Assembly: GCA_019636275.1 (NCBI GenBank)
Contig: JAHBXY010000002.1
Coordinates: 56,213 to 120,212, forward strand
Direction of reading: 5' to 3'
Source of the DNA: Planctomycetota bacterium
GTDB taxonomy: Bacteria; Planctomycetota; J058
DNA: 64,000 bases
Below are positions 8,621-36,541 of this stretch, piece after piece; position 1 is the first letter of the stretch, and each line of letters opens with the position of its first letter. A model generated the notes under the pieces. That model did no database searches. It saw only the letters and a program-made list of their open reading frames with translations, and was not told where the DNA came from. A program made the translations under genes and the position numbers.

Positions 8621-8874
8621 TGCTCCCTCGCGCCGCGCGCCTGCGCGCGGCCCGGTGTCTGCTGGAAGACCAGACGACGTGGTCCTGCCCGAGGTCGGCG
8701 AACGCGTGGTGGTGCACCTGCGACCGCCCACGCCGCGAGCGGCTGCAGGAGAGGACGCAGGGACCTTCCGGGACTTACAGCCCGGGTCGCGATCCGACGT
8801 GAGGACAGGAGGGGTGGGGGAACGTCGGTGCAGGCGCGGATCGACCGCGGCTCACACCGTCCCCTGGGGAGCCA

Positions 8875-11228: not shown

Positions 11229-11435
11229 CTACTTCTTCTCGTCGTTGATCGGGCAGCAGCAGGGCGAGATCTCCTCGCCCGTGAGCGGGCAGATGATCGT
11301 GTCCGTCTGCTGCGCCGACGTCGTGGGCGCGACCGCGGCCACGGGCTCGGTCGAGACCGGCCGGGTCGCCGCGTAGATCGCAGGTCCGCCCGCAGCGGCC
11401 GCCACAGTGAGAGCAACCAGCACCTTCGTCATCAT
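11229..11435 (-). CDS. small secreted Cys-rich peptide (signal peptide; ICPLTGEEISPCCCP), putative metal-binding/chaperone-like
   Basis: AAGGAGG RBS; ATGA overlap with the upstream MerR gene; 68 aa. Confidence 0.5.
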   Translation of the reverse strand: MMTKVLVALTVAAAAGGPAIYAATRPVSTEPVAAVAPTTSAQQTDTIICPLTGEEISPCCCPINDEKK

Positions 11436-18700: not shown

Positions 18701-18868
18701 CAGGCCGGGGCTGTTCGTGAGCACCTGCACCTGGACGTTCGTCACGTCCGGCACGGCGTCGATCGGCAGCTTGCCGAGTGAGCCGATCCCCACGCCGACG
18801 ACCATCAGCCAGGCGGCGATCACCATGAAGCGGTTGTCGAGCGAGAGGTCGATGATGCGGCCGATCAT
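15734..18868 (-). CDS. czcA: heavy-metal efflux RND permease (CzcA/CusA family), 1044 aa
   Basis: MIGRIIDLSLDNRFMVIAAWL...; canonical HME-RND length and TM pattern. Confidence 0.9.
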   Translation of the reverse strand: MIGRIIDLSLDNRFMVIAAWLMVVGVGIGSLGKLPIDAVPDVTNVQVQVLTNSPGLAPEEVERFITFPVESAMSGLPKLEEVRSVSKFGLSAVTVVFEEGTDIYWARQLVAERLVDAREQIPEGYGEPEMGPISSGLGEIYQFEVRGEGKTPMELRTILDWHVNYQLRSVPGVVEVNAFGGELKTYQATIDPDRLVAYGIPLDRVFQAIEENNRNVGGGYIAHAGEQYLIRGEGLIQDLDDLARVVVGNDDRGTPVTVGQLGSVELAPLIRQGAVTRDGEREAVVGIVMMLMGANSRTVARDVHERIQQIQKTLPDGVKIDTFYDRTELVDRTIHTVAKNLIEGGVLVVLVLLLLLGSVRAGLIVASAIPLSMLGAFAAMGYAGLSGNLMSLGAIDFGLIVDGSVVLIENVIRYLHHHRNDPRPHLEKVRAACHEVARPVVFAVGIIAIVYLPILELRGIEGKMFRPMALTVVFALLVSLACALTLMPVLASIFLKKISEKEPLLFRFAKRRYEPLLERTLRHPRVTGLTALALFVASLCVAPFLGAEFIPRLDEGAVAMQIWRIPSISLEQSNEISLQAEKVVKTFPEVKTVVSRTGRPEIATDPMGVEISDTYIILEPPDTWRFDSKEELIAALDKELLRRVPGVMFSYSQPIELRVSELISGVRSDIGIKIYGDDINRMKSVADEVVRAIAAVPGIEEAKAEQTVGLPYLRVRLKRDAIARLGIDATHVLDVIETIGGKPLGTVVEGQQRFQLQARFGSDVRETLHALEDLPVGGPDVGPEGTPALIPLGQLVDMQIETGPAQISREAVSRRITVEANVRGRDLGSAVADAQAAVQKSVRIPAGWTVEWGGQFENLESAMGRLQLLVPLALLLIFVLLYTTFHSAKLAALIFLNVPLAVTGGVFALALRGYPFSISAGVGFIALFGVAVLNGVVLVSYLEHRWAAGLTGDQAAREAAHARLRPVLMTALVASLGFVPMALATSAGAEVQRPLATVVIGGLITSTLLTLLVLPALCSRLKPEQLVSPTEPTPDHPNAGEPVP

Positions 18869-20229
18869 CAGTGCGAGTGGCCCCCACCGAGCTCCTCGGC
18901 TCGAGCCATGGACTTCAGCGTGAAGGTGCCGGTGACGGCGACCTCGGCGCCGGGCTGGAGTCCCTGGACGACCTCCACGTCCGTTCCCGTCCCTTCGACG
19001 ATGCGCACAGGCTGCCGGCGGAAGGTGGTCGCGTCGACCTTCACGAAGACGAAGTGCTCCTCGCCTTCGTGCACGATGGCGACCTCGGGCAGCACCAGCG
19101 CGACCTGGCGCGAGCCGACCGTGATCTCGGCCGTGCCGAACATGCCGGGCCGGACCGGATAGGGCTCGGGCCAGCCCTCCACCTTCGGGTCCTCGAGCTC
19201 GATGCGCACCGTCGCCGCGCGAGTGGCGGTGTCGAGGGCGAAGCCGATCACCGCGACCTTCGCGTCCAGGTGGGTCTCGGGGAAGGCGTCGAGCTTGACG
19301 CAGGCCTCCTGTCCGGTCCGCACGGAGCGGAGGTCCTTCTCGTAGACGTTGGCCAGGACCCAGACCTTGAACAGGTCATGGATCTCGAAGAGCGTCGCCT
19401 GGGTATCGACGAACTCGCTCAGCGTCACGTGACGGGCCGCGATCACGCCTGGTCCGGCCGCCCGGATCATGTAGATCCCGATCCCCGGCCCGTCGTCGGC
19501 CGAGATCTTCTCGATCTCCTCAGCCGGCACGCCGAGGATCCGCAGCCGCTCGTGCGCGGCGAGGAGATCGACCTCGAGCTGCCGCACGGCGGCGCCGACC
19601 TCGAGCAGCCGCCGATCGCGATCCAGCTTCGTCCGGGCCAGGTCGCGCTCCGCCTCGAAGAACGCGCGGGCCGTGGAGATCTGCTGCTCCTTCAGCTGCC
19701 GCTCGCGCTCGAGGATCGTCGTCGCGAGCTCGACGCTCTGCTCCAGGATCCGGGTCTCCTGCGTGAGGATCTCGCGCTGCGCCTCCAGCATGGTCTTCGT
19801 CTTCAGGTACTCGCTCGCGACCTGCCCCAGCTCCACGCTCTCGATCTCGCAAAGCGGATCGCCGGTCTTCACCGCGTCGCCGAGCTGCTTGTGGATCGCG
19901 CGGACGACGCCGCTCACCTTCGGCGTCGCGTGGACCTGCGCGTCCTGGTTCGGCGCGACCACGGCCGTGAGTCGTAGGACCGTGCTGATGGTCCCGGGCC
20001 CTACGGTCTGCACGGCGATCTTGGCGGCCTCGAGCTGCTCGGGCGTGAGCTTGACCACGCCCTCCTCGTGACCTTCCTCTCCGTGCTCGTCGTGGCCTTC
20101 CTCACCGTGCTCGTCGTGGCCGTGACCTTCGTGGCCATGCCCGTCGTCGGCGGCCTTCCGATCGCAGCCGGTGAACGCCATGACGGCGCACAGGAGCAGG
20201 AGCCCGATGCGGGTGCTGTGGTTGATCAT
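18868..20229 (-). CDS. czcB: RND membrane-fusion adaptor (CzcB/CusB family) lipoprotein with His/Glu-rich N-terminal metal-binding stretch
   Basis: Lipobox AFTGC; HGHEGHGHDEHGEEGHDEHGEEGHEEG; HlyD-like core; stop overlaps pump start (TGATG). Confidence 0.85.
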   Translation of the reverse strand: MINHSTRIGLLLLCAVMAFTGCDRKAADDGHGHEGHGHDEHGEEGHDEHGEEGHEEGVVKLTPEQLEAAKIAVQTVGPGTISTVLRLTAVVAPNQDAQVHATPKVSGVVRAIHKQLGDAVKTGDPLCEIESVELGQVASEYLKTKTMLEAQREILTQETRILEQSVELATTILERERQLKEQQISTARAFFEAERDLARTKLDRDRRLLEVGAAVRQLEVDLLAAHERLRILGVPAEEIEKISADDGPGIGIYMIRAAGPGVIAARHVTLSEFVDTQATLFEIHDLFKVWVLANVYEKDLRSVRTGQEACVKLDAFPETHLDAKVAVIGFALDTATRAATVRIELEDPKVEGWPEPYPVRPGMFGTAEITVGSRQVALVLPEVAIVHEGEEHFVFVKVDATTFRRQPVRIVEGTGTDVEVVQGLQPGAEVAVTGTFTLKSMARAEELGGGHSH

Positions 20230-21677: not shown

Positions 21678-22076
21678 TTAGGGGCGGAGCTGCGCCGGAC
21701 GCATCCGGCGCGGAGTCATATCCGGCGGCAGCGCCGCCAGCTCGAACGATGCGACCGTCGGCGGGAGCTCCAGCTCGACGATCGCGTCCGGCAGCGAGGC
21801 CGGCGCGATCACGACGCAGGGCGCGTCATTGCACGGACGCGCGGCCGGCGAGCTGAGCAGCTCGTCGACGCACGCGCCGCAGTCGTCCGAGGCCGGCGTG
21901 ATCGACGGCGCAGGAGCGCTCGGCTGATCGGACGGGGCGCGCTCGCAGCAAAGGGAGAGCGCCAGCTCAGTCGCGCGCCCACCGTCCTGCTCGATGCAGC
22001 TCACGAGCGCACCGCCTCCGACGAGGAGGTGCGTCACCATGAGGATGATCAGCAGGAGCTTGCGGAAGGTCGACAT
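21678..22076 (-). CDS. hypothetical secreted Cys-rich protein (MSTFRKLLLIILMVTHLLVGGG signal; 7 Cys)
   Basis: Sits between the ATPase/His-tail gene and the OMF gene on the same strand; weak RBS. Confidence 0.4.
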   Translation of the reverse strand: MSTFRKLLLIILMVTHLLVGGGALVSCIEQDGGRATELALSLCCERAPSDQPSAPAPSITPASDDCGACVDELLSSPAARPCNDAPCVVIAPASLPDAIVELELPPTVASFELAALPPDMTPRRMRPAQLRP

Positions 22077-22153
22077 GAGTCTGCACGGAATGCTACGGCC
22101 GTCTCGGAGCGAGCGCCAGAGGCAAGATCGGCCACAACGGAACTCTTCAGCGA

Positions 22154-22591
22154 TCAATGGTGATGGTGCTTCCAGCGCGTGTCCGTGTGCTCGCCCACGT
22201 GCTGTCGCTCGAGCGCCCGGAGCTCGGCTTCGTCGAGCAGCTCCGGCAACGCTCGCTCGATGTCGACATGGGAGCCGTCGGCACAGAGCTCGAACGCAGC
22301 GATATGAACGGCGCGCCCGTCGGCGAGCCGGCGCTCGATCGCCGACAGGATGATCGGGCGCTCGATCCCATGCTCCTTGGCCGTGCTCTTGATCGCTGCG
22401 CGCGTGGCGATGATCGTCGATGTCGTCGGGGCCACGCCGAGCGTCGAAGCTGCGGCCTCCTCCACGGCGCTCTTCAGGCGCAGGGACCTGACGATGCTGC
22501 AGCCCTTCGCCACGATAGCCAGGACGATCAAGGCGATCATGGCGAGCATGCCGGCCAACAGAAGGGTGCCGCGCCCTCGGCGCTTCTTCAC
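22154..22591 (-). CDS. membrane-anchored hypothetical protein with C-terminal HHHH tail
   Basis: GTG start overlapping ATPase stop (GTGA); N-terminal TM helix LLLAGMLAMIALIVLAIV; ends WKHHHH. Confidence 0.5.
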   Translation of the reverse strand: MKKRRGRGTLLLAGMLAMIALIVLAIVAKGCSIVRSLRLKSAVEEAAASTLGVAPTTSTIIATRAAIKSTAKEHGIERPIILSAIERRLADGRAVHIAAFELCADGSHVDIERALPELLDEAELRALERQHVGEHTDTRWKHHHH

Positions 22592-24786
22592 CGCGCCGAC
22601 TCCTGATCAGTGCCCCCGCCGAGGAGGCGGAGCCCGTTGAGGATGACGAGGAGCGATGCGCCCATGTCCGCCCCGATGGCCGCCCAGAGCGAGGCGTGAC
22701 CCGCGAACGTGAGCACGACGAACACGGCCTTCACCGCCAGCGAGAAGAACACGTTCTGCCGGATCACGCGGAGCGTGCGACGCGAGTGGAGGACGAGCCA
22801 GGGGAGCTTGCCCAGATCGTCCGACATGAGGGCCACGTCCGCGGTCTCGATCGCCGCGTCGCTGCCGGCGGCACCCATGGCGATCCCGAGAGAGGCGCGC
22901 GCGAGCGCGGGTGCGTCGTTCACGCCGTCGCCGATCATGGCGACGCGACCATGCTTCGCGACCAAGGCGTCGATCACTCGCACCTTGTCGCTCGGCAGCA
23001 GCTCGGCGTGGACCTCGTCGATTCCAGCCTCGGCCGCGATCGCCTTCGCGGTCCCGGCGTTGTCGCCCGTGAGCATGGCGATGTGCTTTACGCCCGCGGC
23101 GCGGAGCGCCTTCAGGGTCCCTGCCACGCCGGGCCGGACGGTGTCCGCGAGGGTGATCACGCCGCAGACGTGAGCCTCGTCGCCGACCAGGACGACGCTC
23201 TGCCCGGCGGTCGAGCGCGCGGCGAGCAGCGCCTGCACGTCGGCTGTCTCCTGACCCCGCTCCTGTAGATAGCGATGGGATCCGAGCCAGAACACGCGGC
23301 CGTCGATCCGGGCGGTGACGCCCTTGCCCTGCACCGTCTGCACGTCGTCCGCGGGCCTGACCGTGACGCCGCGCTCCTGGACGTGCTTCACGATCGCGCG
23401 CGCGAGCGGGTGCTCGCTCCGGGCCTCGATCGCGCCGGCGAGCTCGAGCAGCTCGCGCTCGGTGTGACCGTTCATGGGAGTGACCTCGGTCACGCGCGGC
23501 TTGCCCTCGGTGATGGTCCCGGTCTTGTCGAGCGCGAGCGCCACCAGGGTGGCGGGCGTCTCGACGTGAGCGCCGCCCTTCACGAGGACGCCGTTGCGAG
23601 CGGCGGCCGCGATCGAGGCGACGACGCTCACGGGCGTCGAGATCACGAGCGCGCACGGGCAGCCGATCACGAGCAGGACGAGCGAACGGTAGATCCAGTC
23701 CGACCAGGGCAGCCCGAACGCGAGCGGTGGCACGAGGAGCAGGCCGAGAGCGAGCGCCAGGATCGCTGGCGTGTAGTAGCGCGCGAAGGTCTCGACCCAG
23801 CGCTCCGACGGCGCGCGGCCTGCCTGCGCCTCTCCGACCATCTTGATGATGTGCGCGAGCGTCGTGTCGCCCGCGAGCTTCGTGCTCTCGACCTCGAGCG
23901 CGCCGTCCCCGTTGATCGTGCCGGCGAAGACGGTCTCACCCGGGGCCTTCGACACGGGCATGCTCTCGCCGGTGATCGGCGACTGATCGAGCGTGCTCGA
24001 GCCCCGCACCACCGTCCCGTCGAGGGCCACTCGCTCACCGGGCTTCACGACGAACCTCGCGCCGACGGGGACGCCCTCGGCGGCCACCTCGGCTTCGGTC
24101 CCGTCCTTCAGCAGGTGCACGGTGGGCGGTGCGAGGGCCATGAGCGCTCGCACGGCCCGCCGGGCTCGATCCACGCTCCATGACTCGAGGAGCAGCGAGA
24201 GCGAGAACAGGAACGCCACGACGGCGCCCTCGAACCACTCACCGATCGCGAGCGCGCCGGCGACCGCGACGGTCATGAGCAGGTTCATGTCGGGGCTGAG
24301 GCGGCGCGCAGCCAGCCAGGCCTTCGGCAGGAATGGCCAGGCGCCGAGGATCACGCTGACGAGGTACGCGGCTCGTGCTGGTAGGGGGACAGCGTCGGCC
24401 ACCCCCATGCCCTCCGAGCCGAGGGCCGCGAAGAAGTCCCCTGCGAGCAGGGCGTGAACCGTCAGACCGAGCGCCGCGGCCACACCGCTGCCCGCGGTCG
24501 TCGCTGCGCGGCCGTGCCGTGACCACCAGGTTCCCGGGTCGGGGACCGTGGACACGTCACCGACCGGGGTGGCCTTCATGCCCGTTGCAGCGATCGCGGC
24601 GACGACGGTGGCTGCAGACGCCGGCGACCCCTCGGGCAAGCGCACGGTCAGGCGCCTGCCGAGGAGGTCGAACCCGAGCCGGTCCTCGCCAGGACCGACG
24701 AGGGGCGTGAGCTCGCGCCGGAGGATGCTGATCTCCTCCGAGCAGTCCATGCCTTCGATGTGGAACTGCAGGTCGCGCGAGCTCAT
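22588..24786 (-). CDS. P1B-type heavy-metal-translocating ATPase (CPC motif; ZntA/CadA/CopA-like) with degenerate N-terminal HMA domain
   Basis: GMDCSEE N-terminal domain, TM CPC (IGCPCALV), DKTGT phosphorylation motif, GDGVNDAPAL hinge. Confidence 0.85.
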   Translation of the reverse strand: MSSRDLQFHIEGMDCSEEISILRRELTPLVGPGEDRLGFDLLGRRLTVRLPEGSPASAATVVAAIAATGMKATPVGDVSTVPDPGTWWSRHGRAATTAGSGVAAALGLTVHALLAGDFFAALGSEGMGVADAVPLPARAAYLVSVILGAWPFLPKAWLAARRLSPDMNLLMTVAVAGALAIGEWFEGAVVAFLFSLSLLLESWSVDRARRAVRALMALAPPTVHLLKDGTEAEVAAEGVPVGARFVVKPGERVALDGTVVRGSSTLDQSPITGESMPVSKAPGETVFAGTINGDGALEVESTKLAGDTTLAHIIKMVGEAQAGRAPSERWVETFARYYTPAILALALGLLLVPPLAFGLPWSDWIYRSLVLLVIGCPCALVISTPVSVVASIAAAARNGVLVKGGAHVETPATLVALALDKTGTITEGKPRVTEVTPMNGHTERELLELAGAIEARSEHPLARAIVKHVQERGVTVRPADDVQTVQGKGVTARIDGRVFWLGSHRYLQERGQETADVQALLAARSTAGQSVVLVGDEAHVCGVITLADTVRPGVAGTLKALRAAGVKHIAMLTGDNAGTAKAIAAEAGIDEVHAELLPSDKVRVIDALVAKHGRVAMIGDGVNDAPALARASLGIAMGAAGSDAAIETADVALMSDDLGKLPWLVLHSRRTLRVIRQNVFFSLAVKAVFVVLTFAGHASLWAAIGADMGASLLVILNGLRLLGGGTDQESAR

Positions 24787-24790: not shown

Positions 24791-25144
24791 TCACTGCGCC
24801 GCCGGGGCCATGGCCTTCCACTTCGCCTCGACCTCGGGGTTGCAGGCGATGCACTGCGACTCCGGCATCGTGTGCTCCGCGCACCAGTCCTTCTTGGCCT
24901 TGTAGCTGTCGATCAGCGACGCGTTGCACCGCGTGCAGACCGCTTCGGGGACGCCGTGCGGCGCGCACCACTCGCCCGTGGAGACGTGCGTGCCGCTGCC
25001 CGTCGCCGGAGTGGCGGCGGACGTCCCGGTCGGCGTCGCGGGGGTGGTGGCGGCCGGCGCGGGGGCCGACGGGGTCTCGGCCGGACACCCGGTCACGAGC
25101 AGGGCGAGCGAGACGGCGAACACGGCGAACGAACGACGGATCAT
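24791..25144 (-). CDS. lipoprotein with two Cys-pair modules (WCAPHGVPEAVCTRCN / WCAEHTMPESQCIACNP), putative metal-binding
   Basis: AAGGAG RBS; lipobox LVTGC; Thr/Pro-rich linker; same module repeated 4x in adaptor 28287..30053. Confidence 0.6.
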   Translation of the reverse strand: MIRRSFAVFAVSLALLVTGCPAETPSAPAPAATTPATPTGTSAATPATGSGTHVSTGEWCAPHGVPEAVCTRCNASLIDSYKAKKDWCAEHTMPESQCIACNPEVEAKWKAMAPAAQ

Positions 25145-25167
25145 GATCGACTCCTTGGGTTGATGGG

Positions 25168-28100
25168 TCACGAGGGTGCTGCCGGCTCGCGGCCGCGCAG
25201 GACCGAGTACAGGACGGGCAGGACGACGAGCGTCAGGATCGTCGACGTGAAGATCCCGCCGATGACGACGGTGGCGAGCGGGCGCTGCACCTCGGCGCCG
25301 ACGCCCGTGTTGAGCGCCATGGGCAGGAAGCCGAAAGCGGCCACGAGGCTCGTCATGAGCACGGGTCGCAGGCGCGTCTCCGCGGCCCGGCGGATCGCGT
25401 CCTGCAGCGGCACGCCTGCGTCGTGGAGCTGGCGGATCGCCGACACGAGCACCATGTCGCCCAGCACCGAGACGCCCGACAGCGCGATGAAGCCGACCGC
25501 GGCCGAGATGCTGAAGGGCAGGTCGCGCAGCCAGAGCGCGAGCACGCCGCCGACGATCGCGAAGGGCACGCCCGTGAACACGCGCAGCGCGTCGAGCACG
25601 CGACCGTAGGTGATGTAGAGGAGCGACAGGACGAGCAGGAGCGCCATGGGCACGACGATCAGCAGGCGCTCGCGGGCGCGCTCGAGGTGCTCGAACTGGC
25701 CGCCGAATGCGATGCGATACCCGGCGGGCAGAACGACCTGGGCGTCGAGCGCGCGTCGGACGTCCTCGACGAAGCCGCCGATGTCGCGGTCGCGGGCGTT
25801 GGCCTGCACGACGATCCGCCGCTTGCCCCACTCGTGCTGGATCGTCGAGGGCCCTTCGATCAGCTCGAGGCGCGCGAGCGTGTGCAGCGGGACCCGCTGC
25901 CCCGTGGGCGAGGTCAGCAGCAGCTCACCGAGCGCTTCGAGGTCGGTGCGATACCGATCCTCCAGTCGGAGGGCGAGGTCGAAGCGGCGCGCGCCGTCGA
26001 TCACCTGGCCCACGGGCCGCGTGCCGACCATCTCGACCGCCTCGAGCACCTCCTGCGCGTGGATCCCGTATCGCGCCAGCGCCGGCCGATCGACCGTGAC
26101 CTGGAGCACCGGGAGCCCGGTGATCTGCTCGGCCGAGACCTCCGCGGCGCCGGGCACGGCCTCGACGACGCGCTGGATCTCGAGGGCTTTCTCCTTGAGG
26201 ACGTCGATGTCGTCGCCGAAGAGCTTGATCCCGAGGTCGCCGCGGACGCCCGCGATCATCTCGTTGACGCGCATCTCGATCGGCTGCAGGAAGGCGGCTC
26301 GCATGCCCGGGAGCTTGCCTACGACCTCGCTCATGGCCTTTACGAGCTCGTCCTGCGTCGTGGCGCGCGTCCATTGCTCGGTCGGAGTCAGCGTGACGAA
26401 CACGTCCGAGAGCTCGAGGCCCATGGGGTCGGTCGCGACCTCGGCCGTGCCGGTGCGCGTCCACACGCGCTCGACCTCGTCCGGGAACGACTGCAGGACC
26501 ACCTGCTCGATCTGCATGCCATAGCGCACGCTCTCCTCGAGCGAGACGCTGGCCAGGCGGACCGTGTTGATCACGAGCGCGCCCTCGCGCAGGCGGGGCA
26601 CGAACTCGGACCCGAGGCGCGTCGCGACCCAGCCTGCGCCAGCGACGACGAGCACCGCCAGGACGAGGACGACCGCGGGCCAGCGGAGCGCGCCGCCGAG
26701 GATCGGCCGGTAGCCGCGCTTCAGCGCGCGGACGAGCACGTTGTCCTCATCCTCGCCGTGCGCTCGCTTGCGCAAGACGAGGCTGGCGAGCACGGGCATG
26801 AGCGTCAGCGAGAGCAGCATGGAGCCGAGCAGCGCGAAGATCACCGTCAGCGCCATGGGGCGGAACAGCTTCCCCTCGACGCCTTCCAGCGTGAGGATCG
26901 GCAGGTAGACGATCATGATGATCAGCTCGCCGAAGAGCGTCGGGCGCCGCACCTCGACGGCCGCGTCACGCACGATCTCGCGCACGCTGCGCCCGGACGT
27001 GTCCTCACCCAGCCGGCGGGCCGCGTTCTCGACCATGATCACGGAGCTGTCGACCACCAGGCCGAAGTCGATCGCGCCGAGGCTCATGAGGCTGCCGGCG
27101 ATCCCGAAGCGCAGCATTCCGTCGAAGGCGAAGAGCATGGACAGCGGGATCGCGAGCGCGACGATCAGACCGGCGCGCAGGTTGCCGAGGAAGGCGAACA
27201 GGACCGCGATCACCAGGAGCGCGCCCTCGAGCAGGTTCTTCTTCACCGTGTCCAGGACGCGGTCGACGAGGCTCGTGCGTGTGTAGACGGTCTCCAGCTT
27301 CACGCCCTCGGGCAACGTCTTCTGGACCTCGGCGAGGCGCTCGGCGAGCCGCACCGTGACCAGGCGGCTGTTCTCGCCCATGAGCATGAACGCGAGGCCG
27401 AGGACGACCTCGCCCTTGCCGTCCGCCGTGACCGCGCCGCGGCGGACCTCGTGCCCCTCCTCCACACGCGCGACGTCACGCACGAGGACCGGCACACCGT
27501 CGTGAGTGGCCACGACGATCTGCTCCACGTCAGCGACGTTGCTGGCGAGGGCGAGCCCCTGCACCAGCGTGGCCTCGCCGCCGCGCGAGACCATGCCCCC
27601 ACCCACGCTCAGGTTGTTGCTGCGGATCCCCGCGACGATGTCGTCGACGGTGAGGTCGTGCTTCAGCAGCCGGTCCGGATCGACGACGACGTGGACCTGC
27701 CGCTCCTCGCCGCCCCAGGCGTTCACCTCGGCGACGCCGGGCACAGCGCTGAGGGGCGGTCGCACCAGGTACTTGTGGATCGTGCGCAGCTCGGAGAGGC
27801 TCTTGTCCTCGCCGGTGACGAGGTAGTGGAACACCTCGCCCAGGCCCGTCGACACGGGGCCGAGGGTCGGTCGGTCGATCCCCTCGGGGAGCTCGACCGC
27901 GCCGAGCCGCTCCGAGACCACCTGGCGCGCGAGGTAGATGTCGAGCTCGTCCTCGAAGATCAGCGTGATCTGCGAGAAGCCGAACTTGGAGATCGAGCGG
28001 GCCTCGTGGAGCTTGGGCAGGCCGCTGAGGGCCGCCTCGACCGGGATCGTGATCTGCCGCTCGACCTCGAGCGGAGAGAGCGTCGGCGCGACGGTGTTGA

Positions 28101-28287
28101 CCGTGACCTGGATCGGCGTCGTGTCCGGGAATGCGTCGAGCGGAAGGCGCTGGAGCGCGTACACCCCGAGCATGGAGAGGAGCAGCGTGGCCACGAGGAC
28201 GATCGGGCGGTGCGCCAGGCACAGGTCGATCAGTCGTTCGAGAAAGCCGGGCGCCTCTGCCGGCGGCTCGGAAGAGGGGGGGGGCAT
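25168..28287 (-). CDS. czcA: heavy-metal efflux RND permease (CzcA/CusA family), 1039 aa
   Basis: ATG overlapping TAA of adaptor (TAATG); MPPPSSEPPAEAPGFLERLIDLCL...; HME-RND architecture. Confidence 0.85.
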   Translation of the reverse strand: MPPPSSEPPAEAPGFLERLIDLCLAHRPIVLVATLLLSMLGVYALQRLPLDAFPDTTPIQVTVNTVAPTLSPLEVERQITIPVEAALSGLPKLHEARSISKFGFSQITLIFEDELDIYLARQVVSERLGAVELPEGIDRPTLGPVSTGLGEVFHYLVTGEDKSLSELRTIHKYLVRPPLSAVPGVAEVNAWGGEERQVHVVVDPDRLLKHDLTVDDIVAGIRSNNLSVGGGMVSRGGEATLVQGLALASNVADVEQIVVATHDGVPVLVRDVARVEEGHEVRRGAVTADGKGEVVLGLAFMLMGENSRLVTVRLAERLAEVQKTLPEGVKLETVYTRTSLVDRVLDTVKKNLLEGALLVIAVLFAFLGNLRAGLIVALAIPLSMLFAFDGMLRFGIAGSLMSLGAIDFGLVVDSSVIMVENAARRLGEDTSGRSVREIVRDAAVEVRRPTLFGELIIMIVYLPILTLEGVEGKLFRPMALTVIFALLGSMLLSLTLMPVLASLVLRKRAHGEDEDNVLVRALKRGYRPILGGALRWPAVVLVLAVLVVAGAGWVATRLGSEFVPRLREGALVINTVRLASVSLEESVRYGMQIEQVVLQSFPDEVERVWTRTGTAEVATDPMGLELSDVFVTLTPTEQWTRATTQDELVKAMSEVVGKLPGMRAAFLQPIEMRVNEMIAGVRGDLGIKLFGDDIDVLKEKALEIQRVVEAVPGAAEVSAEQITGLPVLQVTVDRPALARYGIHAQEVLEAVEMVGTRPVGQVIDGARRFDLALRLEDRYRTDLEALGELLLTSPTGQRVPLHTLARLELIEGPSTIQHEWGKRRIVVQANARDRDIGGFVEDVRRALDAQVVLPAGYRIAFGGQFEHLERARERLLIVVPMALLLVLSLLYITYGRVLDALRVFTGVPFAIVGGVLALWLRDLPFSISAAVGFIALSGVSVLGDMVLVSAIRQLHDAGVPLQDAIRRAAETRLRPVLMTSLVAAFGFLPMALNTGVGAEVQRPLATVVIGGIFTSTILTLVVLPVLYSVLRGREPAAPS
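28276..28284. repeat. homopolymeric tract (9 G on + strand = 9 C in codons 2-4 of the RND gene)
   Basis: atg ccc ccc ccc tct, seen directly in sequence. Confidence 0.9.
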
Positions 28288-30053
28288 TACTCGCCCTCGC
28301 AACAGCCGGCGCCGATGCTGCCCTTGAGGATCTCGGTCTTGAGGAGGAACGCGCCGACCGAGACGACGGCCTCACCGTCCGAGAGGCCCGCGAGCACCTC
28401 GACGTGCGTGTCCGTCGCGCCGCCGAGTTGCACCTTCCGCGGCAGGAAGGCCGTGTCGCCCTCCGGGAGGAAGACGACGTTGCAGCAGCCCTCCCACTGC
28501 ACGGCCTCCCTCGGCACGAGCAGCGCGTCGCCTCGGTCGGAGAGGGTCACCTGCGCCGTGCCGAACAGGTTCGCGCGCAGACGGCCGTCGCCGTTCTTCA
28601 GCTCCGCGCGCGCCTTGAGCGTGCGCGTCCGTCGGTCGACCTCGCTCGAGATCCACGTGATGTGTCCCGAGAAGCTCTCCCCCCGCAGCGCATGAACCGC
28701 GAACACGACCGGCTGGTCGGGCGCGATCCGCGCGATCGCCGCCTCCGGCACGTCGAGCAGCGCCCACATGGTGTCGGTGTCGACGATCGTCAGCAGCGGC
28801 TGCCTGGTCTCCACGACCTGGCCGCGGACCGCGTCTCGCCTCACGACCACACCGGCGAAGGGGGCCCGGATCGCGAGCGTCGAGTCGCGCGCGTTTGCGC
28901 CACCTTCGCGGACCTTCGCCGCCTGGTCAGCGGTGAGCCCGATGCTTCGGAGGCGCTGCTCAGCCCTGGCCAGGTCCGCCTTCACCTCCGTCCTGCGAGT
29001 ATCCGCGTCGATCACGGCGCGCTGCGTGCCCAGCCCTCGCTCGACGAGGCCCAGCTCGCGGGCATGGTTCCGCTCCCACAGCTCGAGCATCGAGACCGCG
29101 GTCGTCAGCTCGGACTTCGCGGCGCCGAGCTCCGGCGACTCGATCGACGCGAGGACCGCGCCCTCTTCGACCCAGTCGCCGAGCTTCGCGTTGACCTCCA
29201 CGACCGTGCCCGGAACGCGCGAGGACACCTCCGCGCGACGGTCCGCGGCGTAGACGATCTCCACGTTCACGGTCGTCAGGTCGCGGAACGGCGCGCGCAC
29301 CACCGGCGTCGTCACGATCCCGGTCTGACGCACGACGTCCGCCGAGGCGAGCTGGATCTTCTGGGCGTGCTTCCGACAGCCGACGACCGGCGACGAATGC
29401 CGCCGCGCCTCCGGCGACATGGGCGCGCTCGCCGGCGGCGGCGCGGCGAGCCGCGGGTTGCAGATCACGCACTGGCTCTCGGGCACCTCGTGCTCGGCGC
29501 ACCAGTCGAACGTCTTCTTGAAGGCGGGGATCAGCGCCGCGTTGCAGCGGGTGCACAGCGCCTCGGGCACGCCGTGCTCGGTGCACATGCCCCGTTGCTC
29601 GACGAGGGCCGGCGAGCAGATGAAGCAGATCGCCTCCGCAACGCCGTGCTCTCCACAGAACGCGCCTTCGCCTTGACCATGACCCGACCCGCCCGGCGCG
29701 GGCGGCTTGTGTCGGCCCGCGACCTCCGGGTTGCAGGTGACGCACTGCGACTCCGGCAGGTTGTGCTCCGCGCACCAGTCGTTGATCGCCTTGAACGCAG
29801 GGATGACGTCCTTGTGGCAGCGGGTGCAGATCGCCTCGGGGACGCCGTGTCCGCCGCAGAAGCCCTTCGTCTCGAGGAGCGCGGGCGTGCAGAACGGACA
29901 CTCCGCCGTCGACAGCGTGTGCGGACACGTGCCCGTCGCCGCCGCCGCGGGCCCCACGCCTCGACTGCGCATGACGTGGAAGCGATAGCCTGCGCCGACC
30001 AGGAGCAGGACGAGGATCCCGGCGAGCGCCAGGTTCTTCTTCGTGGTGTTCAT
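28287..30053 (-). CDS. RND membrane-fusion adaptor with an N-terminal array of four C-x-(E/G)H-x-(V/L)PE-x-x-C-x-x-C modules and C-terminal Cys pairs (EGCCN, GAGCCEGE)
   Basis: GGGAGGA RBS; TM anchor LALAGILVLLLVGAGY; CGGHGVPEAICTRCH, CAEHNLPESQCVTCNP, CGEHGVAEAICFICSP, CTEHGVPEALCTRCN, CAEHEVPESQCVICNP; HlyD-like core. Confidence 0.8.
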   Translation of the reverse strand: MNTTKKNLALAGILVLLLVGAGYRFHVMRSRGVGPAAAATGTCPHTLSTAECPFCTPALLETKGFCGGHGVPEAICTRCHKDVIPAFKAINDWCAEHNLPESQCVTCNPEVAGRHKPPAPGGSGHGQGEGAFCGEHGVAEAICFICSPALVEQRGMCTEHGVPEALCTRCNAALIPAFKKTFDWCAEHEVPESQCVICNPRLAAPPPASAPMSPEARRHSSPVVGCRKHAQKIQLASADVVRQTGIVTTPVVRAPFRDLTTVNVEIVYAADRRAEVSSRVPGTVVEVNAKLGDWVEEGAVLASIESPELGAAKSELTTAVSMLELWERNHARELGLVERGLGTQRAVIDADTRRTEVKADLARAEQRLRSIGLTADQAAKVREGGANARDSTLAIRAPFAGVVVRRDAVRGQVVETRQPLLTIVDTDTMWALLDVPEAAIARIAPDQPVVFAVHALRGESFSGHITWISSEVDRRTRTLKARAELKNGDGRLRANLFGTAQVTLSDRGDALLVPREAVQWEGCCNVVFLPEGDTAFLPRKVQLGGATDTHVEVLAGLSDGEAVVSVGAFLLKTEILKGSIGAGCCEGE

Positions 30054-30221: not shown

Positions 30222-30620
30222 CTACGCTCGGGGCGGGTGAAAGACCTCGAGCGGCTGCACATGGCGAGCGCCGGCGCGGTCGAGCGTCGACGACCGAGCA
30301 CCGGGCAGATCAGCCACGACAGACGGACCAGCGTCCGTGCCGAGGGGTAGCCCACCGCAGCAGCCGCAGTGACATCCCGAATCGCAGCCGTCCTTCGGGA
30401 CCGGTGCGCCGGCGTCGTTCTCGACCGCGAGGCCGTCGTCGCAGCCGTCGCTGCCGTCCGCGGGGATGCTCGGGCAGCACGCCGAACCGTGGGAATGAGC
30501 GGCCTCCGACCGGAACGCGTCGAGCGGGATGTGCAGCACCAGCACGCCCACGATCAGGGCGAAGCAGATCAGCGAGGTGAACCCGGCCGGGCGATGCACA
30601 GGCTGCGACCGTACCAGCAT
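30222..30620 (-). CDS. small membrane-anchored Cys-rich protein (HSHGSACCP...CDDG...DGCDSGCHCGCCGG)
   Basis: N-terminal TM helix; 12 Cys in 132 aa; upstream of the third RND operon on the same strand. Confidence 0.45.
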   Translation of the reverse strand: MLVRSQPVHRPAGFTSLICFALIVGVLVLHIPLDAFRSEAAHSHGSACCPSIPADGSDGCDDGLAVENDAGAPVPKDGCDSGCHCGCCGGLPLGTDAGPSVVADLPGARSSTLDRAGARHVQPLEVFHPPRA

Positions 30621-31123: not shown

Positions 31124-31585
31124 TCGGCTGACGGCCGCAAGGGCGAGGCATGCCCGCCGCATGATGCGGGCGAGATGGATCGGATTCGCGTGGTGTGGAA
31201 CTCCTAAGTCCAGTGGCCGCACACCATCCTCCAGGAGTCGGATGGGCCGGGTAGTCTAGCCGCAGGGCGGCTTTCATCGCTTTAAATGTTTCTGCTCGCG
31301 ATCCTGCAGTTTTGACGACTTAACCCGTGCTGCGCCAGCTGTCCGGTTTGATGTGGCAGGGCTGTTCTGCCAAATTGACAACGTGGCGCTGGGTCAGGGT
31401 TCATCCTGCGTCGGTTGCGCGTGGCCCGCCCTGTGCAGGTGAGGTGCGGCCAGGCGTTCGACTCCGGTCTGCCCCAAACCCACACCGAACCATCGGCGGT
31501 GCGGTCCCGGGCGGCGACTTTGAAGGTTGTTCCTCCGGGAGGGCCAACGTCGCGGTCAGTCGTGCTCGGGCGGTGGAGGGAGCTC

Positions 31586-32788
31586 ATGAGTACACGCCCC
31601 ACGAAGGAGGGACCACGCCCGACCAGGCGAACGCGCCCTGGCCCCGCTGACGCGATGAGCAGGCACATTCCTCCCGCAGTTCGGTGCTCTCTCTGGGGAC
31701 GGGCTTCAGGTCGTTGCGAGTTCTCGGGCTGCAACCGTGCCGTGTCGTGGCACGCGGTGACGATGGAGGCGGGCAACTTCGCGGAAGTCGCGCACATCGT
31801 CGGGTTCAGCAAGGACGGACCCCGCGGTGAGGCCTTCCTCTCCGCGGACCTCGCCAAGGACGTTTCGAATCTCATGCTCCTCTGCCGTGGGTGTCACGAC
31901 CTCGTCGACAAGGACCCCACGAACTATACGGTGCATGTGCTCCAGGACATGAAGCTGGCCCATGAGCAGCGCGTGGAGCTGGTCACGGGCATCGCCGAGG
32001 AGAAGAAGAGCCACGTCCTGCTCTACTCCGCCAACGTCGGCGACCACGGTCCGGCGTCTACGTTCCAGCGGGCTGCGACCGCCATGTCCCCCGACTCGTA
32101 TCCGGCAGAGACGTATGCGATCTCACTTGGGTTCTCGAACAGCGCCATTCGCGACACCGACGACGACTTCTGGGCGATCGAGCAGAGGAACCTGACCGCG
32201 TCCCTGAAGGAGCGGCTGCGACCTCGGCTGGCTCGAGGCGGCGACATCTCCCACCTCGCCATCTTCGCGGTCGCGCCTCAGCCGCTGCTCATGCAGCTCG
32301 GATTCTCGCTGTCCGACATTCCTTCGGCCGAGACCTTTCAGCTGCATCGTGAGCCTCCAGGTTGGAAGTGGCGCTCTCACCCGCCGCGGTCACGGTTCGT
32401 TGTTGTGGAGCCGACCGAGATACGCGGGGCCCCAGCCCTCGTGCTCTCGTTGAGCGCGTCCATCTCGCCCGAGCGCGTCAAGGCTGTCCTGGGCGAGGAC
32501 GTGACGATCTGGACCCTCACGGTCGACGAGCCGCACAACGATTTCCTGCAATCGCGACAGCAGTTGAAAGAGTTCCGCGAGACGGTCCGGCCGCTCCTTG
32601 ACCTGATCAAGCTCAAGCACGGCGAGAGCTCGTTGCTGCACGTCTTCCCTGCCATGCCCGTCTCGACTGCGGTCGACTTCGGTCGTGTGCTCATGGCCAA
32701 GGCCGACCTGCCGATCAGGGTCTACGACCAGAACCGGTCCAAGGGCGGCTTCGTCCATGCTTTGGATCTCGTGTCGAGTCCTTTGTAG
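31586..32788 (+). CDS. cap5: CBASS effector, Cap5-like: N-terminal HNH endonuclease + C-terminal SAVED domain
   Basis: HNH motif CSLWGRASGRCEFSGCN...AEVAHIVGF...LMLLCRGCHDLVDKDP; SAVED-like halves HLAIFAVAPQPLLMQLGFSL / LLHVFPAMPVSTAVDFGRVL; GGAGGG RBS before ATG 31586 (alternative ATG 31655). Confidence 0.65.
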   Translation: MSTRPTKEGPRPTRRTRPGPADAMSRHIPPAVRCSLWGRASGRCEFSGCNRAVSWHAVTMEAGNFAEVAHIVGFSKDGPRGEAFLSADLAKDVSNLMLLCRGCHDLVDKDPTNYTVHVLQDMKLAHEQRVELVTGIAEEKKSHVLLYSANVGDHGPASTFQRAATAMSPDSYPAETYAISLGFSNSAIRDTDDDFWAIEQRNLTASLKERLRPRLARGGDISHLAIFAVAPQPLLMQLGFSLSDIPSAETFQLHREPPGWKWRSHPPRSRFVVVEPTEIRGAPALVLSLSASISPERVKAVLGEDVTIWTLTVDEPHNDFLQSRQQLKEFRETVRPLLDLIKLKHGESSLLHVFPAMPVSTAVDFGRVLMAKADLPIRVYDQNRSKGGFVHALDLVSSPL

Positions 32789-32803
32789 GACGAGAGGGCC
32801 AAC

Positions 32804-33536
32804 ATGGCAGAGCACCTTTCACCGGAGCGCATGGAGCAGTTCAGCCGCATCCTCGGGGATCTGGCCGACGACCTCGATGTTCCACCGTCGAAGTATGAGG
32901 AAGCGAAGGAGCACTACGACGCGGTAGGGGCGTGGCTGAACGACAGCCCCGACCTGGCCGCCCTGAACCCGACCATCTACCCACAGGGGTCCTTCGCTCT
33001 TGGCACCGCGATCAAGCCGGTTGGCGATGGCGACTATGACGTCGATGCCGTCTGCGTACTCCAGCTCAGCACCGCGACCACGACCCAGCACGCAGTGAAA
33101 ACTCTCGTCGGTGATCGCCTGAAGGAGAACAAGACGTATGCCCGCATGCTGCACCCCAAGGCGGGTGGGCGTCGTTGTTGGACCCTCAAGTACGCTGACT
33201 CGTCCAACTTTCATCTCGACATCTTGCCGGCCGTTCCCGATAGCCAAAGGGAGCTTGTCCGGCTCGGCGTCCCGCCCGAGATCGCGAAGTACGCAATCTG
33301 CATCACCGATCGCGAGCTCTGGGCCGTCGCGTTGACCTGGCCGCGGAGCAACCCGCAGGGCTACGTCGAGTGGTTCAAGTCGCGGATGCGCGTTGTCTTT
33401 GAAGAGCGTCGCCAGCTACGCGCGCTTGAGATTCGCGCCTCGGTCCAGGACATTCAGGACTATCAGGTCCGAACGCCCCTTCAACGTCTCATTCAGCTCC
33501 TGAAGCCCACGTTCCAGAGATCTCGGCCGTGCTCCG
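32804..33536 (+). pseudogene. nucleotidyltransferase (SMODS/CD-NTase-like; GS...DxD motif), N-terminal fragment interrupted by an IS1634-family insertion
   Basis: YPQGSFALGTAIKPVGDGDYDVDAVCVL; reading frame runs into the IS inverted repeat at ~33537. Confidence 0.55.
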
Positions 33537-35688
33537 CCCAATTATGTGTCTGCCAGAGTGGGGCTGAGTCGTCCTGCGCGTCCTCGGCGACGGGCTACTT
33601 CGCCTTCTTGGCCCTCCAGCCGCGGTGGCGTGGCTTCGGCTCCGCGAGTTGGGCATAGGCGACGCCAGGATCCGTCAGCATCGAGTGGTTGAGCAGCTCG
33701 AGCGCGTCACGCTGTGCGGTCGTCATGTTCGTCACGGTCACGCCGGGCACCCCGTCGACGCGGATCGTGTTGATCCCCTCGAAGAGACGGAAGACGACCT
33801 CCGTGGTCGGTCGCGTGGTCCAGCCCTTGTTCCCCGGGAAGTCGGCCCCGTGCTGCTCGAGGAGGCGGCGCACCTCCCGCTGGATGAGCGCGTAGACCAT
33901 CAGGGCCAGCACGTAAACGAGACCGAGCGCCGCGATCCGGGCGTCGGTCTTCAGGAACAGCGGCGCCACCTGTTGTGGATTCTTGAAGATCCGGATCGCG
34001 GTCTCGACCAGGTTCTGGTCCTGGTACGTGCGGAAGAGCTCCTGGTCCGAGCAAGCGTCGGGCCCCGTCGACGGGCGGGTCGTGATCAGGACGAAGCAAC
34101 TCTCGCGAAGGATAGCCTCGTCGACGTCGTGCTGGTCGTGTTCGATCGTGAGCACGGCGCGCCATACCGTTTCCATTTCGCGCTGCTCGTCTGCTGGCGG
34201 TCGTCCCGGGCCGGGGCGCTTCGTCGGTCGACGCTCGGCCACCACGCCAGCGACAAGCCGGTGAAGGTCTGGGCCGTGCCGCTCGATCGCGGCCGCAGCC
34301 GCGCGCCGGGCGTCCTCGTCGCACTTGAACTCGCGCTTGCCGAGCCGGACTGCGATCCGTTCGAGGCTCTTGCGCTCCTTGTCTCGTCGCGCCTCGATGA
34401 TCGCCGTCTTCTGCTCGCGCAAGGTCGTGGACTCAACGACGAGAGCGCGGATCGGGAACTCGTGCTCGACGCCGGTCGACTCGTCCTTCCAGCGATAGGA
34501 GAGGGCACACGAGCGGCCGTTCCACTCCTTCTCCGGCTCCGCCTCGAGGTCGTCGACGGCAGTCCCGTCCTCCAGGAACACCTTCGGGTAGACGACCTTC
34601 AGGCGAGTGAGCGGCTCGTCGCGCCCGAGAGCCGCGCGGAAGGCAGTGAACGCCTCCCCCCAGAGCCCGACACCGCGCGGCATCATCGTCAGGACATGGA
34701 AGCCGTGCTTCTGCGCGAGCAGCAGCGTCTCGCCCGAGAAGAGCTTGGCGTCGCCGACGATCGTCGTGCCCCGTGGGTCGGGGAGGACCTCGGCGAGGCG
34801 CCCCATGAGCCAACGGGTCTCCTGCGGGTCACTGCGGTTGCCGGACGACACGCGACCGAGAACGGCGACGCCGCCGTCGCAGGCCACGGCCAGTCCGTAC
34901 ACGATCTGCTTCAGGTCGCTCCGATAGTCCTTGCTGTGGCCTCTCGTGACGTGTGGAACCGCTCGCTCGTCCTCCGGGTCCAACGGCGGCACGCTGGCCG
35001 CATACTCGCCGTAGACCGAGACGGACGAGGTGTCGACGTGAATGGTCCCGAGCTCGAGGTCGTGCACTTTCACCGCACGAACGACGGCTGCAGCTTGGAT
35101 CTTCGTCGGGCCCGCGGCGAACGTGTCGTCGAGCGCCCGGGCCAACCGGTCGTCGTGGAACTGGGCGCAGCTCCCCTTCCAGCCGAACGCCAGCTCGAGG
35201 TCGTACGGCGCGAGGAGCTCGTCGATCCGATAGAGAGTGTGCCGGCCCAGCAGGATCGCGACGATCAGGGCCTCGACGCACTCACCCGCGCTCACACGAC
35301 TGCGCGGGTCCATGGGAACGATCTCGTCCACGAGGGCTGCGACGTCGAGCTGCCGCAGAGCACGTCCAATGATCGGCAAGAAGTCGAGGCGCTTCGCGCT
35401 GGCTTGCATGTGCCCTCTCCTCGCACGCCCGCGTGCGCGGGGCAAGGACAGCACGACAGCGGCCAGCACATCTCCAGCGTCCACGCCTCGCGCGGTCCAG
35501 TTGCGCATCCTTGCGCATCAGAAGCGTCTCCGGAGTGCAGCCGAACGGCGCCACGGAGTGGCCTCCAACACGGAGCTCCAACAGAATGCGCGCGGCGCGC
35601 CAGATGCACGCCAGTCGCCGCGGCTCGCCCCCCTGGGCGGCGGGGCGCCGTCGTCGGCTCTCAGTTGTTTGGCAATTACATAATTGGC
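33537..35688 (-). mobile_element. IS1634-family (IS4 superfamily) insertion sequence, ~2.15 kb, imperfect ~30-bp terminal inverted repeats (ccaattatgt...tgcca...ctgag)
   Basis: IRL 33537-33568 and IRR 35657-35688 are reverse-complementary; large DDE transposase inside. Confidence 0.65.
33595..35409 (-). CDS. IS1634-family DDE transposase (604 aa)
   Basis: Length and motifs typical of IS1634 (HVDTSSVSVYG, DGGVAVLGRV, PRGVGLWGEAFTAF); the antisense 782-aa ORF is rejected. Confidence 0.7.
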   Translation of the reverse strand: MQASAKRLDFLPIIGRALRQLDVAALVDEIVPMDPRSRVSAGECVEALIVAILLGRHTLYRIDELLAPYDLELAFGWKGSCAQFHDDRLARALDDTFAAGPTKIQAAAVVRAVKVHDLELGTIHVDTSSVSVYGEYAASVPPLDPEDERAVPHVTRGHSKDYRSDLKQIVYGLAVACDGGVAVLGRVSSGNRSDPQETRWLMGRLAEVLPDPRGTTIVGDAKLFSGETLLLAQKHGFHVLTMMPRGVGLWGEAFTAFRAALGRDEPLTRLKVVYPKVFLEDGTAVDDLEAEPEKEWNGRSCALSYRWKDESTGVEHEFPIRALVVESTTLREQKTAIIEARRDKERKSLERIAVRLGKREFKCDEDARRAAAAAIERHGPDLHRLVAGVVAERRPTKRPGPGRPPADEQREMETVWRAVLTIEHDQHDVDEAILRESCFVLITTRPSTGPDACSDQELFRTYQDQNLVETAIRIFKNPQQVAPLFLKTDARIAALGLVYVLALMVYALIQREVRRLLEQHGADFPGNKGWTTRPTTEVVFRLFEGINTIRVDGVPGVTVTNMTTAQRDALELLNHSMLTDPGVAYAQLAEPKPRHRGWRAKKAK

Positions 35689-36541
35689 GAAGCCTGGGCC
35701 GAGATGTCTGGAATGCGGGCTGAAGCGCCACCGCGATCTCCGTTACGACGACGACGACGACAAGCCAATCTCGATCATCATCACGACGCTGGCAGCCAAG
35801 GCCTATCGGAACGAGCGGGACCTGGGCTCCGCACTCCTGAACGTCGTTCCCGGAATGCGTCACGGGATCGAGCTGCGCGAAGGCAAGTGGTGGGTCCCCA
35901 ACCCCGTCGACCCGCGCGAAAACTTCGCCGACAAGTGGAACGAGACGCCTCGCAAATACGAGCTGTTCCGTGACTGGCTCCAGGCCGTCGAGACGGAGCA
36001 TCGAGCCCTCCTGAATTCGCTCGGGCCGAAATCGGGGCAAACCGTCGCAAGGCTGTTGTGTGAGTCGTACGGTGCCGACACCTCGAAGGGAGCCATCGAA
36101 AAGTTCGCCCGTCGGAATGACGCCGACACCTTCGTACTTACGGGGCCAAGGAACGCTCAGCGCTTCAGCATCGCGTATCGAGAGAATCCCCTCTGGCCTA
36201 TCTACCTGAAGCACCGCGTGACCATCTCGGGGCGCGCAACCAGGAACGGCTTCACGCCGTTCGCGTTCGAGAACGGTTCCACCGCGATTACAAAGCACTG
36301 TTCGCTTAGCTTCGCCGCGCACACCGACGTTCCCCGACCGTTCCAGGTGTTCTGGCAGGTTGTGAACACGGGCGCCGAGGCGGAGCGAGCCAAGTGCCTC
36401 CGCGGTGACCGCTTCTACCAGAGCGGTCCCACACACGATGAGATCACGCTCTATCGAGGCATGCACTGGGTGGAGTGCTTCGTCGTGAAGGACGGCATGT
36501 GCATCGCGCGGAGCGCCGAGTTCGTCGTCAACGTGCAATGA
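35689..36541 (+). pseudogene. C-terminal fragment of the IS-split nucleotidyltransferase (helical region PISIIITTLAAKAY + C-terminal beta-rich domain, possibly AGS-C-like)
   Basis: No plausible own start (TTG only); continues in-frame sense from the N-terminal fragment if the IS is removed. Confidence 0.45.

Follow-up and report, generated by a model that had tools for sequence, protein, structure and literature searches.

A predicted periplasmic Cys3His metal-binding module shared by heavy-metal efflux adaptors and small lipoproteins of Planctomycetota

The copper route runs from CopA to CusF, and from there to the N-terminus of CusB and to CusA (PMC7558416, PMC8277102). Metal movement between CusF and CusB is a shared-ligand exchange (PMC6235853). 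For the pumps of the Czc class, far less is understood than for the copper pump about how substrates (Zn, Cd, Co) are acquired from the periplasm. CusF adopts an oligonucleotide/oligosaccharide-binding (OB) fold with a His/Met/Met/Trp site, and CusB uses three methionines. Adaptor-borne divalent-metal sites are likewise found in Zn/Cd/Co pumps, as the His-rich N-termini of CzcB-type adaptors and the zinc site of ZneB; these consist of histidine and carboxylate ligands and lie in unstructured stretches or between the adaptor domains. Here we describe a locus in a 64,000-nucleotide stretch of DNA from a Planctomycetota bacterium (contig JAHBXY010000002.1, positions 56,213 to 120,212; hereafter "the window"), which encodes a periplasmic adaptor of the resistance-nodulation-division (RND) type with repeated cysteine-rich modules at its N-terminus, and a small lipoprotein built from the same modules. 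Like the Escherichia coli copper/silver system CusCFBA, it combines an adaptor-borne N-terminal element, here a predicted metal-binding one, with a separate small periplasmic protein of the same operon. It differs from Cus in its putative ligands (Cys3His in repeated mini-modules without detectable similarity to CusF or CusB), in the Zn/Cd-type rather than copper-type pump and ATPase of the window, and in the fact that the stand-alone protein and the adaptor bear the identical kind of module. Unlike the CzcB and ZneB sites, the modules offer thiolates and are predicted to be folded, and the adaptor exhibits Cys-Cys pairs on its body besides the modules.

A six-frame scan of the window for the pattern C-x2-H-x5-6-C-x2-C yields seven matches, five in the adaptor and two in the lipoprotein, and none in other genes. 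In shuffled windows the matches average 0.045 when triplets and 0.08 when single bases are shuffled, with a maximum of one. A sixth adaptor module, CPHTLSTAECPFC, has a Cys-His gap shorter by one residue; together with the five pattern matches it brings the adaptor to six modules in two triads (Table 1), joined by a Gly/Pro-rich linker. The overall pattern is C-x-(E/G)-H-x-x-(P/A)-E-x-x-C-x-x-C, and three types can be told apart. A-type modules end in C-P-F-C, B-type modules read CxxHGV(P/A)EAxCxxC and precede a helix with D-W at its end, and C-type modules read (W)CxEHxxPESQCxxC(N/H)P. A preliminary description of the window had already pointed to a recurrent and distinct Cys/His ligand set and to its reuse in a stand-alone lipoprotein. 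Both observations hold, the latter as a single B-C pair; the same description had counted four modules at the adaptor N-terminus, where the recurrence stands and the number has to be raised to six.

Table 1. Coordinates of the modules, their host genes and other features of the window.
Feature	Position	Strand	Remarks
Adaptor (membrane fusion protein), 588 aa	28287-30053	-	N-terminal anchor, two Cys3His triads, CzcB-type body; by translation
Adaptor hydrophobic anchor, residues 8-25, LALAGILVLLLVGAGYRF	29979-30032	-	read from sequence
Module A1, CPHTLSTAECPFC (C43, H45, C52, C55)	29889-29927	-	A-type, C-x-H spacing
Module B1, CGGHGVPEAICTRC (C66, H69, C76, C79)	29817-29858	-	six-frame scan
Module C1, (W)CAEHNLPESQCVTC (C94, H97, C104, C107)	29733-29774	-	six-frame scan
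Module A2, CGEHGVAEAICFIC (C133, H136, C143, C146)	29616-29657	-	six-frame scan
Module B2, CTEHGVPEALCTRC (C157, H160, C167, C170)	29544-29585	-	six-frame scan
Module C2, (W)CAEHEVPESQCVICNP (C185, H188, C195, C198)	29460-29501	-	six-frame scan
Cys226, start of adaptor body, VVGCRKHAQKIQL	29376-29378	-	Cys in 113/113 aligned clade members
QWEGCCN (C523, C524), C-terminal part of adaptor body	28479-28499	-	Cys-Cys in 116/116 closest adaptor homologues
GAGCC (C584, C585), adaptor C-terminus	28299-28313	-	116/116 closest homologues
CzcA-type heavy-metal RND pump	25168-28302	-	gene start overlaps adaptor stop
Lipoprotein, 117 aa, one B-C module pair	24791-25144	-	by translation
Lipoprotein signal peptide and lipobox LLVTG-C20, MIRRSFAVFAVSLALLVTG-C20	25085-25144	-	read from sequence
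Lipoprotein module B, CAPHGVPEAVCTRC	24926-24967	-	C11, H14, C21, C24 invariant in alignment A3
Lipoprotein module C, (W)CAEHTMPESQCIAC	24842-24883	-	W38, C39, H42, C49, C52 invariant in alignment A3
P1B-2 (Zn/Cd/Pb-type) P-type ATPase	22588-24786	-	directly downstream of lipoprotein
Small Cys-rich protein, N-terminal hydrophobic segment	30222-30620	-	upstream of adaptor; "hypothetical protein" at NCBI
Separate two-HMBD protein with Gly/His tail	96-812	-	accompanies CusB-like adaptor
CusB-like adaptor, about seven HMBD/CPMHP-type modules at both ends	6452-8731	-	
CzcB adaptor, His-rich N-terminus, GGGHSH tail	18868-20229	-	
HNH-SAVED effector	31415-32788	+	
CD-NTase/SMODS gene	from 32804	+	
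Insertion-sequence terminal inverted repeats	33504-33528, 35697-35721		88% complementary
DUF4277 transposase of insertion sequence	33595-35508	-	

The putative ligands are strongly conserved. A search with the N-terminal 220 residues of the adaptor returned 229 proteins. In an alignment of 50 two-triad homologues that share 45-55% identity with the window sequence (alignment A1), none of the 18 cysteines and six histidines varies, those of the short-spaced first module included (C6, H8, C15 and C18 in the alignment numbering); the tryptophan before each C-type module and the P-x-S-Q of the first one are invariant too. Among 646 distinct B-type and 725 distinct C-type modules, each ligand position is kept in at least 98.8% (more than 99% for the C-type), and 10 of the 19 observed ligand substitutions lead to Asp, His or Cys, which are likewise able to bind metal.

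No Pfam-A or NCBIfam model covers the module regions of the adaptor or the lipoprotein. A single-sequence search of the PDB gives no module match, and a search with the profile of alignment A1 gives two chance matches only (E-value about 0.6-0.7). A further profile, A3, matches ZneB, CusB and MacA through its adaptor-body columns only, ZneB being the best solved-structure match to that part (3lnn, E = 7.5e-06). Literature searches yielded no account of the module motif or of cysteine-rich Czc adaptors, and the papers returned for HMBD/PF19335 do not describe the motif. The preliminary description had considered the modules a possibly distinct family, a claim it had made dependent on conserved cysteines in homologues and on the lack of a match to a described domain; the cysteines are invariant in the 50 homologues, and the Pfam-A, NCBIfam and PDB searches leave the modules unmatched. 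The modules are a real, strongly conserved domain family absent from the libraries searched. Their kind is familiar, that of an accessory to a heavy-metal adaptor with a predicted metal-binding role; their sequence, predicted fold, ligand chemistry and organisation are new.

AlphaFold2 (AF2) models the adaptor with a predicted local distance difference test score (pLDDT) of 88, both triads exceeding 90 and the linker staying under 50, and the lipoprotein with a pLDDT of 88.9 and a predicted template-modelling score (pTM) of 0.71. The models contain scant regular secondary structure, with beta-bridges and short helices only. Each modelled module consists of a short beta-bridge that bears the C-x2-H and then a helical turn that opens with the C-x2-C. 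This is reminiscent of treble clefs and zinc knuckles, the general layout of the treble clef being a knuckle plus the N-terminus of a helix. All examples of these folds known to us are cytoplasmic or nuclear; the new modules differ in being periplasmic, in tandem and tied to metal efflux, and no structural match was obtained. Membership in the HMA domain family was rejected, given the lack of a profile match and a predicted structure that is not ferredoxin-like. The modules do not belong to the CusF-type chaperones either, since Pfam and the PDB give no sequence match and the models contain no beta-barrel; the likeness to CusF is functional only.

The host protein as a whole is a heavy-metal RND periplasmic adaptor (CzcB/CusB type) encoded beside a CusA/CzcA-family pump gene. 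It is identical to NCBI MBX3465499.1, annotated as "efflux RND transporter periplasmic adaptor subunit" in a Planctomycetes metagenome-assembled genome. Residues 265-497 match HlyD_D23 (Pfam, E = 3e-45), and the protein scores 166 bits against TIGR01730 RND_mfp (cut-off 94.9) and 149, under the cut-off of 319, against the narrower CzcB/NccB model TIGR00999; the pump scores 1193 bits against the CusA/CzcA model TIGR00914 (cut-off 701). The N-terminal hydrophobic anchor LALAGILVLLLVGAGYRF would place the modules in the periplasm, following the standard topology of such adaptors.

The preliminary description had also noted EGCCN and GAGCC towards the adaptor end, and these turn out to be conserved well beyond the window. 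W(E/D)GCC occurs in all 116 closest adaptor bodies, as does GxGCC at the C-terminus, and one or more modules are present in 103 of these; of the 55 longer members from the profile search, 40 have the GAGCC motif. Two adaptors (loci L004 and L014) have no modules of their own and are partnered by a stand-alone module protein, and both keep the two CC motifs. The occurrence in all closest homologues and in these module-free partners marks EGCCN and GAGCC as hallmarks of the clade. The host adaptors form a separate clade with five further invariant cysteines, namely C226 and the pairs in WEGCC and GAGCC, which presumably belong to the membrane-proximal adaptor domain that contacts the pump.

The lipoprotein gene is separated by 23 nt from the pump gene that precedes it and by 4 nt from the ATPase gene that follows. 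Its product (NCBI MBX3465497.1, "hypothetical protein") has, as far as its sequence tells, what defines a bacterial lipoprotein: a signal peptide, a lipobox and a cysteine at +1. The lipobox is kept in orthologues, as LLVTGC in the near-orthologous contig L015 and as GLSGC on plasmid pK2D_1 of Planctomycetes bacterium K2D. The order of the window (adaptor, pump, B-C lipoprotein, ATPase) is repeated in both. The plasmid order is czcC, czcB, czcA, the module lipoprotein (annotated as hypothetical there too), an HMA-domain gene, cadA, trxA (a lipoprotein thioredoxin) and czcD.

Searching 1.84 billion cluster representatives (50% identity clusters) with a profile gives 747 matches with E <= 1e-3 and 442 with E <= 1e-10. 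The named sources are mostly Planctomycetota/Phycisphaerae, with single cases in Ignavibacteria, Zixibacteria and Gammaproteobacteria; a genome scan with a single sequence yielded three loci. A Pfam scan identifies 67 of 73 long members as HlyD_D23 adaptors and reveals no other recurrent partner domain, only a few isolated chance matches besides the adaptor domains. The short members (about 100-270 aa) are stand-alone proteins, of which 79 out of 179 exhibit a lipobox and 76 a hydrophobic anchor. The number of modules per protein ranges from 2 to 10. Several hundred clusters presently annotated as "hypothetical protein" or as a generic "adaptor subunit" could receive a domain model. In one member (P0150, 576 aa) four modules at residues 332-435 are found behind the adaptor's barrel-sandwich region and not at the N-terminus, which shows that modules can be inserted at more than one adaptor site.

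In all six loci examined individually, a stand-alone module gene lies directly upstream of genes for a CzcB-type adaptor and an RND pump; an outer-membrane factor gene precedes it in three of them (L004, L007, L012). The 80 metagenome loci comprise 32 with fused modules only, 22 with both stand-alone and fused modules, 14 with a stand-alone gene followed by an adaptor gene within 400 bp, and 12 cut by the contig end. Without exception, the 68 evaluable loci have the modules either fused to an adaptor or encoded directly upstream of an adaptor gene. By neighbourhood and fusion, the linkage of the modules to heavy-metal adaptors is exclusive among the loci examined.

A thioredoxin-like gene follows the pump directly in four loci (L013, at 12627-13169, L072, L075 and L081), and the lipoprotein thioredoxin of pK2D_1 adjoins cadA. 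The thioredoxin/TlpA-like proteins encoded after the pump or cadA have membrane anchors or lipoboxes and motifs such as WATWCPPC and WAPWCQPC. Such linked genes fit thiols that need to stay reduced. In the module-bearing locus L009, the thioredoxin/TlpA-like gene is at 11235-11681.

The neighbouring genes give an indication of the metal. The pump contains the motif DFGLVVDSSVIMVEN, and the pumps of the window and related loci share DFGLVVDSSV(I/V)M(V/I)EN, which we take, following the classification of Nies, to denote the divalent-cation type and not the CusA type. The ATPase scores 608 bits against TIGR01525 (cut-off 346), 513 bits against the cadmium-family model TIGR01512 (cut-off 313.5), and slightly below the copper-family cut-off. 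A pump matching the CusA/CzcA model together with an ATPase of the cadmium family makes Zn and Cd, perhaps also Pb or Co, the likely substrates, as judged from the neighbouring genes alone.

By analogy with CusF and the N-terminus of CusB, we favour with moderate confidence the reading that the modules are a family of periplasmic Cys3His metal-binding units serving a thiol-based clade of Zn/Cd-type pumps. In each module, three cysteine thiolates and a histidine would most likely coordinate one metal ion, the modules being arranged as A-B-C triads or B-C pairs. Natural single-triad proteins, with three cysteines per module, contain nine, which cannot all be engaged in disulfides. The proteins would be exported unfolded through Sec and held at the membrane, either by fusion behind the anchor of a CzcB-type adaptor or as a separate lipoprotein or anchored protein whose gene adjoins that of the adaptor. 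In the periplasm the modules would load divalent metals of soft or borderline character (Zn, Cd, possibly Pb or Co), and ligand exchange would hand the metal to the cysteine cluster of the adaptor and then to the CzcA pump; alternatively, metal-loaded modules might switch the pump on. The small lipoprotein, whose gene separates those of the pump and a ZntA/CadA-type ATPase, is proposed to link the two: in a role like that of CusF, it may take metal released by the ATPase and give it to the like modules on the adaptor. Genomic context and conservation lend good support to the periplasmic metal-binding role suggested in the preliminary description, metal binding itself being what we infer from them. 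If correct, the family is a testable candidate for the step at which Czc pumps acquire metal from the periplasm, a small module with one four-ligand site that exists both free and borne on the adaptor. It also reveals an adaptor clade built on periplasmic cysteine chemistry where methionine and histidine are usual, and prompts one to ask what maintains these thiols in the reduced state.

A stronger version is possible, though we hold it to be doubtful: that these proteins constitute the first periplasmic thiolate chaperone relay for Zn/Cd, in which a Cys3His module of new fold passes metal from the ATPase, from module to module, to the five-cysteine cluster and finally to the CzcA pump. Such a relay would give the Czc class a CusF-like route, kept reduced in an oxidising compartment.

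Several points weigh against the favoured reading. The periplasm is oxidising and Cys-rich periplasmic domains are often disulfide-bonded; the AF2 results do not tell a metal-site geometry from disulfides. Zinc is usually bound with very high affinity at Cys3His sites, a poor fit to a protein that has to pass its metal on. The window pump and those of related loci share no conserved cysteine, leaving the pump without one to take over a thiolate-bound metal. The assignment of a specific metal draws on the neighbouring genes only. Only about 5 of about 95 loci have a thioredoxin-like neighbour, and a search of the window for a thioredoxin motif found none. Finally, a small lipoprotein after the pump is seen in three loci only, namely the window, L015 and pK2D_1.

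In an alternative that we regard as unlikely, the modules are permanent zinc or disulfide folds with no part in handling the transported metal, and serve as a spacer or to dock, for instance, the outer-membrane factor, pump or cell wall. The Cys3His set is well known from structural zinc sites, the triads are modelled as rigid and confident units, the pump has no conserved cysteine, and the copy number of 2 to 10 is as in repeat scaffolds. Against this, the modules occur only with heavy-metal CzcB-type adaptors among the loci examined, and the same adaptor clade has five additional invariant cysteines. Where this adaptor has its modules, at the N-terminus, the other adaptors of the window have HMBD or His-rich segments, and genes of redox maintenance are occasionally linked.

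It is rather improbable that the modules form a metallothionein-like sponge, tethered to the membrane and buffering toxic metal in the periplasm rather than delivering it to the pump. Six modules per adaptor would amount to up to 36 per hexameric ring, in addition to the lipoproteins, and both the arrays of up to 10 modules and the thiolate-rich ligands suit this role. A buffer, however, needs no strict gene coupling or fusion to an adaptor, and the conserved cysteines of the adaptor body suggest an onward path. Each module moreover has one defined four-ligand set, unlike the clustered thiolates of metallothioneins.

We also compared the modules with described metal-binding domains of similar motif, since they might be extremely diverged members of HMBD (PF19335) or of the TRASH/YHS zinc ribbons and no new family, which we judge very unlikely. 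The likeness to HMBD lies in the order of the ligands (C-x2-H followed by C-x2-C) and in the repeated occurrence on accessory proteins and on heavy-metal adaptors, where both take up the same place, exemplified in the window by the CusB-like adaptor and the two-HMBD protein beside it. Exact CPMHP motifs occur in the window at 246, 6842, 7391 and 8396, all outside the adaptor and lipoprotein genes; the first belongs to the two-HMBD protein, which matches HMBD in Pfam (E = 7e-13), and the other three copies are known by motif. When 1073 distinct modules are aligned by hhalign with the eight HMBD copies of the window, the CxxC halves are paired over 12 columns with a probability of 43%. Against membership, no HMBD, YHS or TRASH match is found with E <= 1 in the adaptor or the lipoprotein, nor with E <= 0.01 among the 73 members scanned, and the His-to-Cys loop comprises 6 residues versus 9-12 in the HMBD copies of the window. 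The flanks differ as well (HGVPEA and DWCxEHxxPESQC in the new modules, YxCPMHPE...PGxCPxCGM in HMBD) and, unlike HMBD, the new modules are arranged in A-B-C triads with helical linkers. The preliminary description was therefore right in setting them apart from the CPMHP modules. Its proposal of a TRASH or zinc-ribbon type is not supported, as the TRASH spacing, C-x19-22-C-x3-C, is absent and no zinc-ribbon model matches with E <= 1 either.

A redox cofactor engaged in electron transfer or redox sensing, either a c-type haem on CxxCH (a single window module has it, as CTRCH, and CxxCH occurs in the C-type module of several homologues) or an iron-sulfur or rubredoxin-like centre, is effectively excluded, as no more than 6 of 13 aligned sequences have a His directly behind the CxxC, the others having N, R or S there, the invariant His precedes the CxxC, no cytochrome-maturation genes were seen among the examined neighbours, and none of the 179 stand-alone members has the twin-arginine (Tat) motif needed for the export of a pre-assembled iron-sulfur protein.

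The minus-strand genes of the locus are packed in an operon-like manner, from the small Cys-rich protein through adaptor, pump and lipoprotein to the ATPase. Neither Pfam nor NCBIfam assigns a family to the small protein (30222-30620) or to its analogues listed below, which may represent an additional component or a regulator of the adaptor-pump system. A closely similar homologue occupies the equivalent position in L015 (1539-1955). Small proteins of about 120-160 aa with a hydrophobic N-terminus and two cysteine clusters, such as SACC...GCDSGCHCGCCGG in the window protein, are found upstream of cysteine-type adaptor operons. Looser analogues lie upstream of the adaptor genes in L004 (5917-6408), L007 (6057-6482), L009 (2294-2707), L010 (7360-7731) and L013 (6119-6487). 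The product of 21678-22157 (minus strand) of the window can be listed among these Cys-cluster proteins; only the L015 copy aligns closely and the rest loosely. On the other side of the locus, a 145-aa open reading frame (ORF) (22154-22591, minus strand) overlaps the ATPase stop by 4 nt; its product has a hydrophobic N-terminus, an HHHH end and no Pfam family.

The window contains three heavy-metal pumps in one island, with adaptors of three different ligand chemistries, all encoded on the minus strand (Table 1; the two-HMBD protein accompanies the CusB-like adaptor). The window also contains a defence locus (31415-36541) of the type of the cyclic-oligonucleotide-based anti-phage signalling systems (CBASS). 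Its CD-NTase gene is apparently split by an insertion sequence of about 2.2 kb, and the remainder of the gene, as identified by eye, seems to reside in the ORF 35684-36541. The G+C content is about 0.60-0.72 in the first 42 kb and 0.72-0.79 past about 42 kb (42000-64000). This shift suggests that the part with metal resistance, CBASS and the insertion sequence may be an acquired island.

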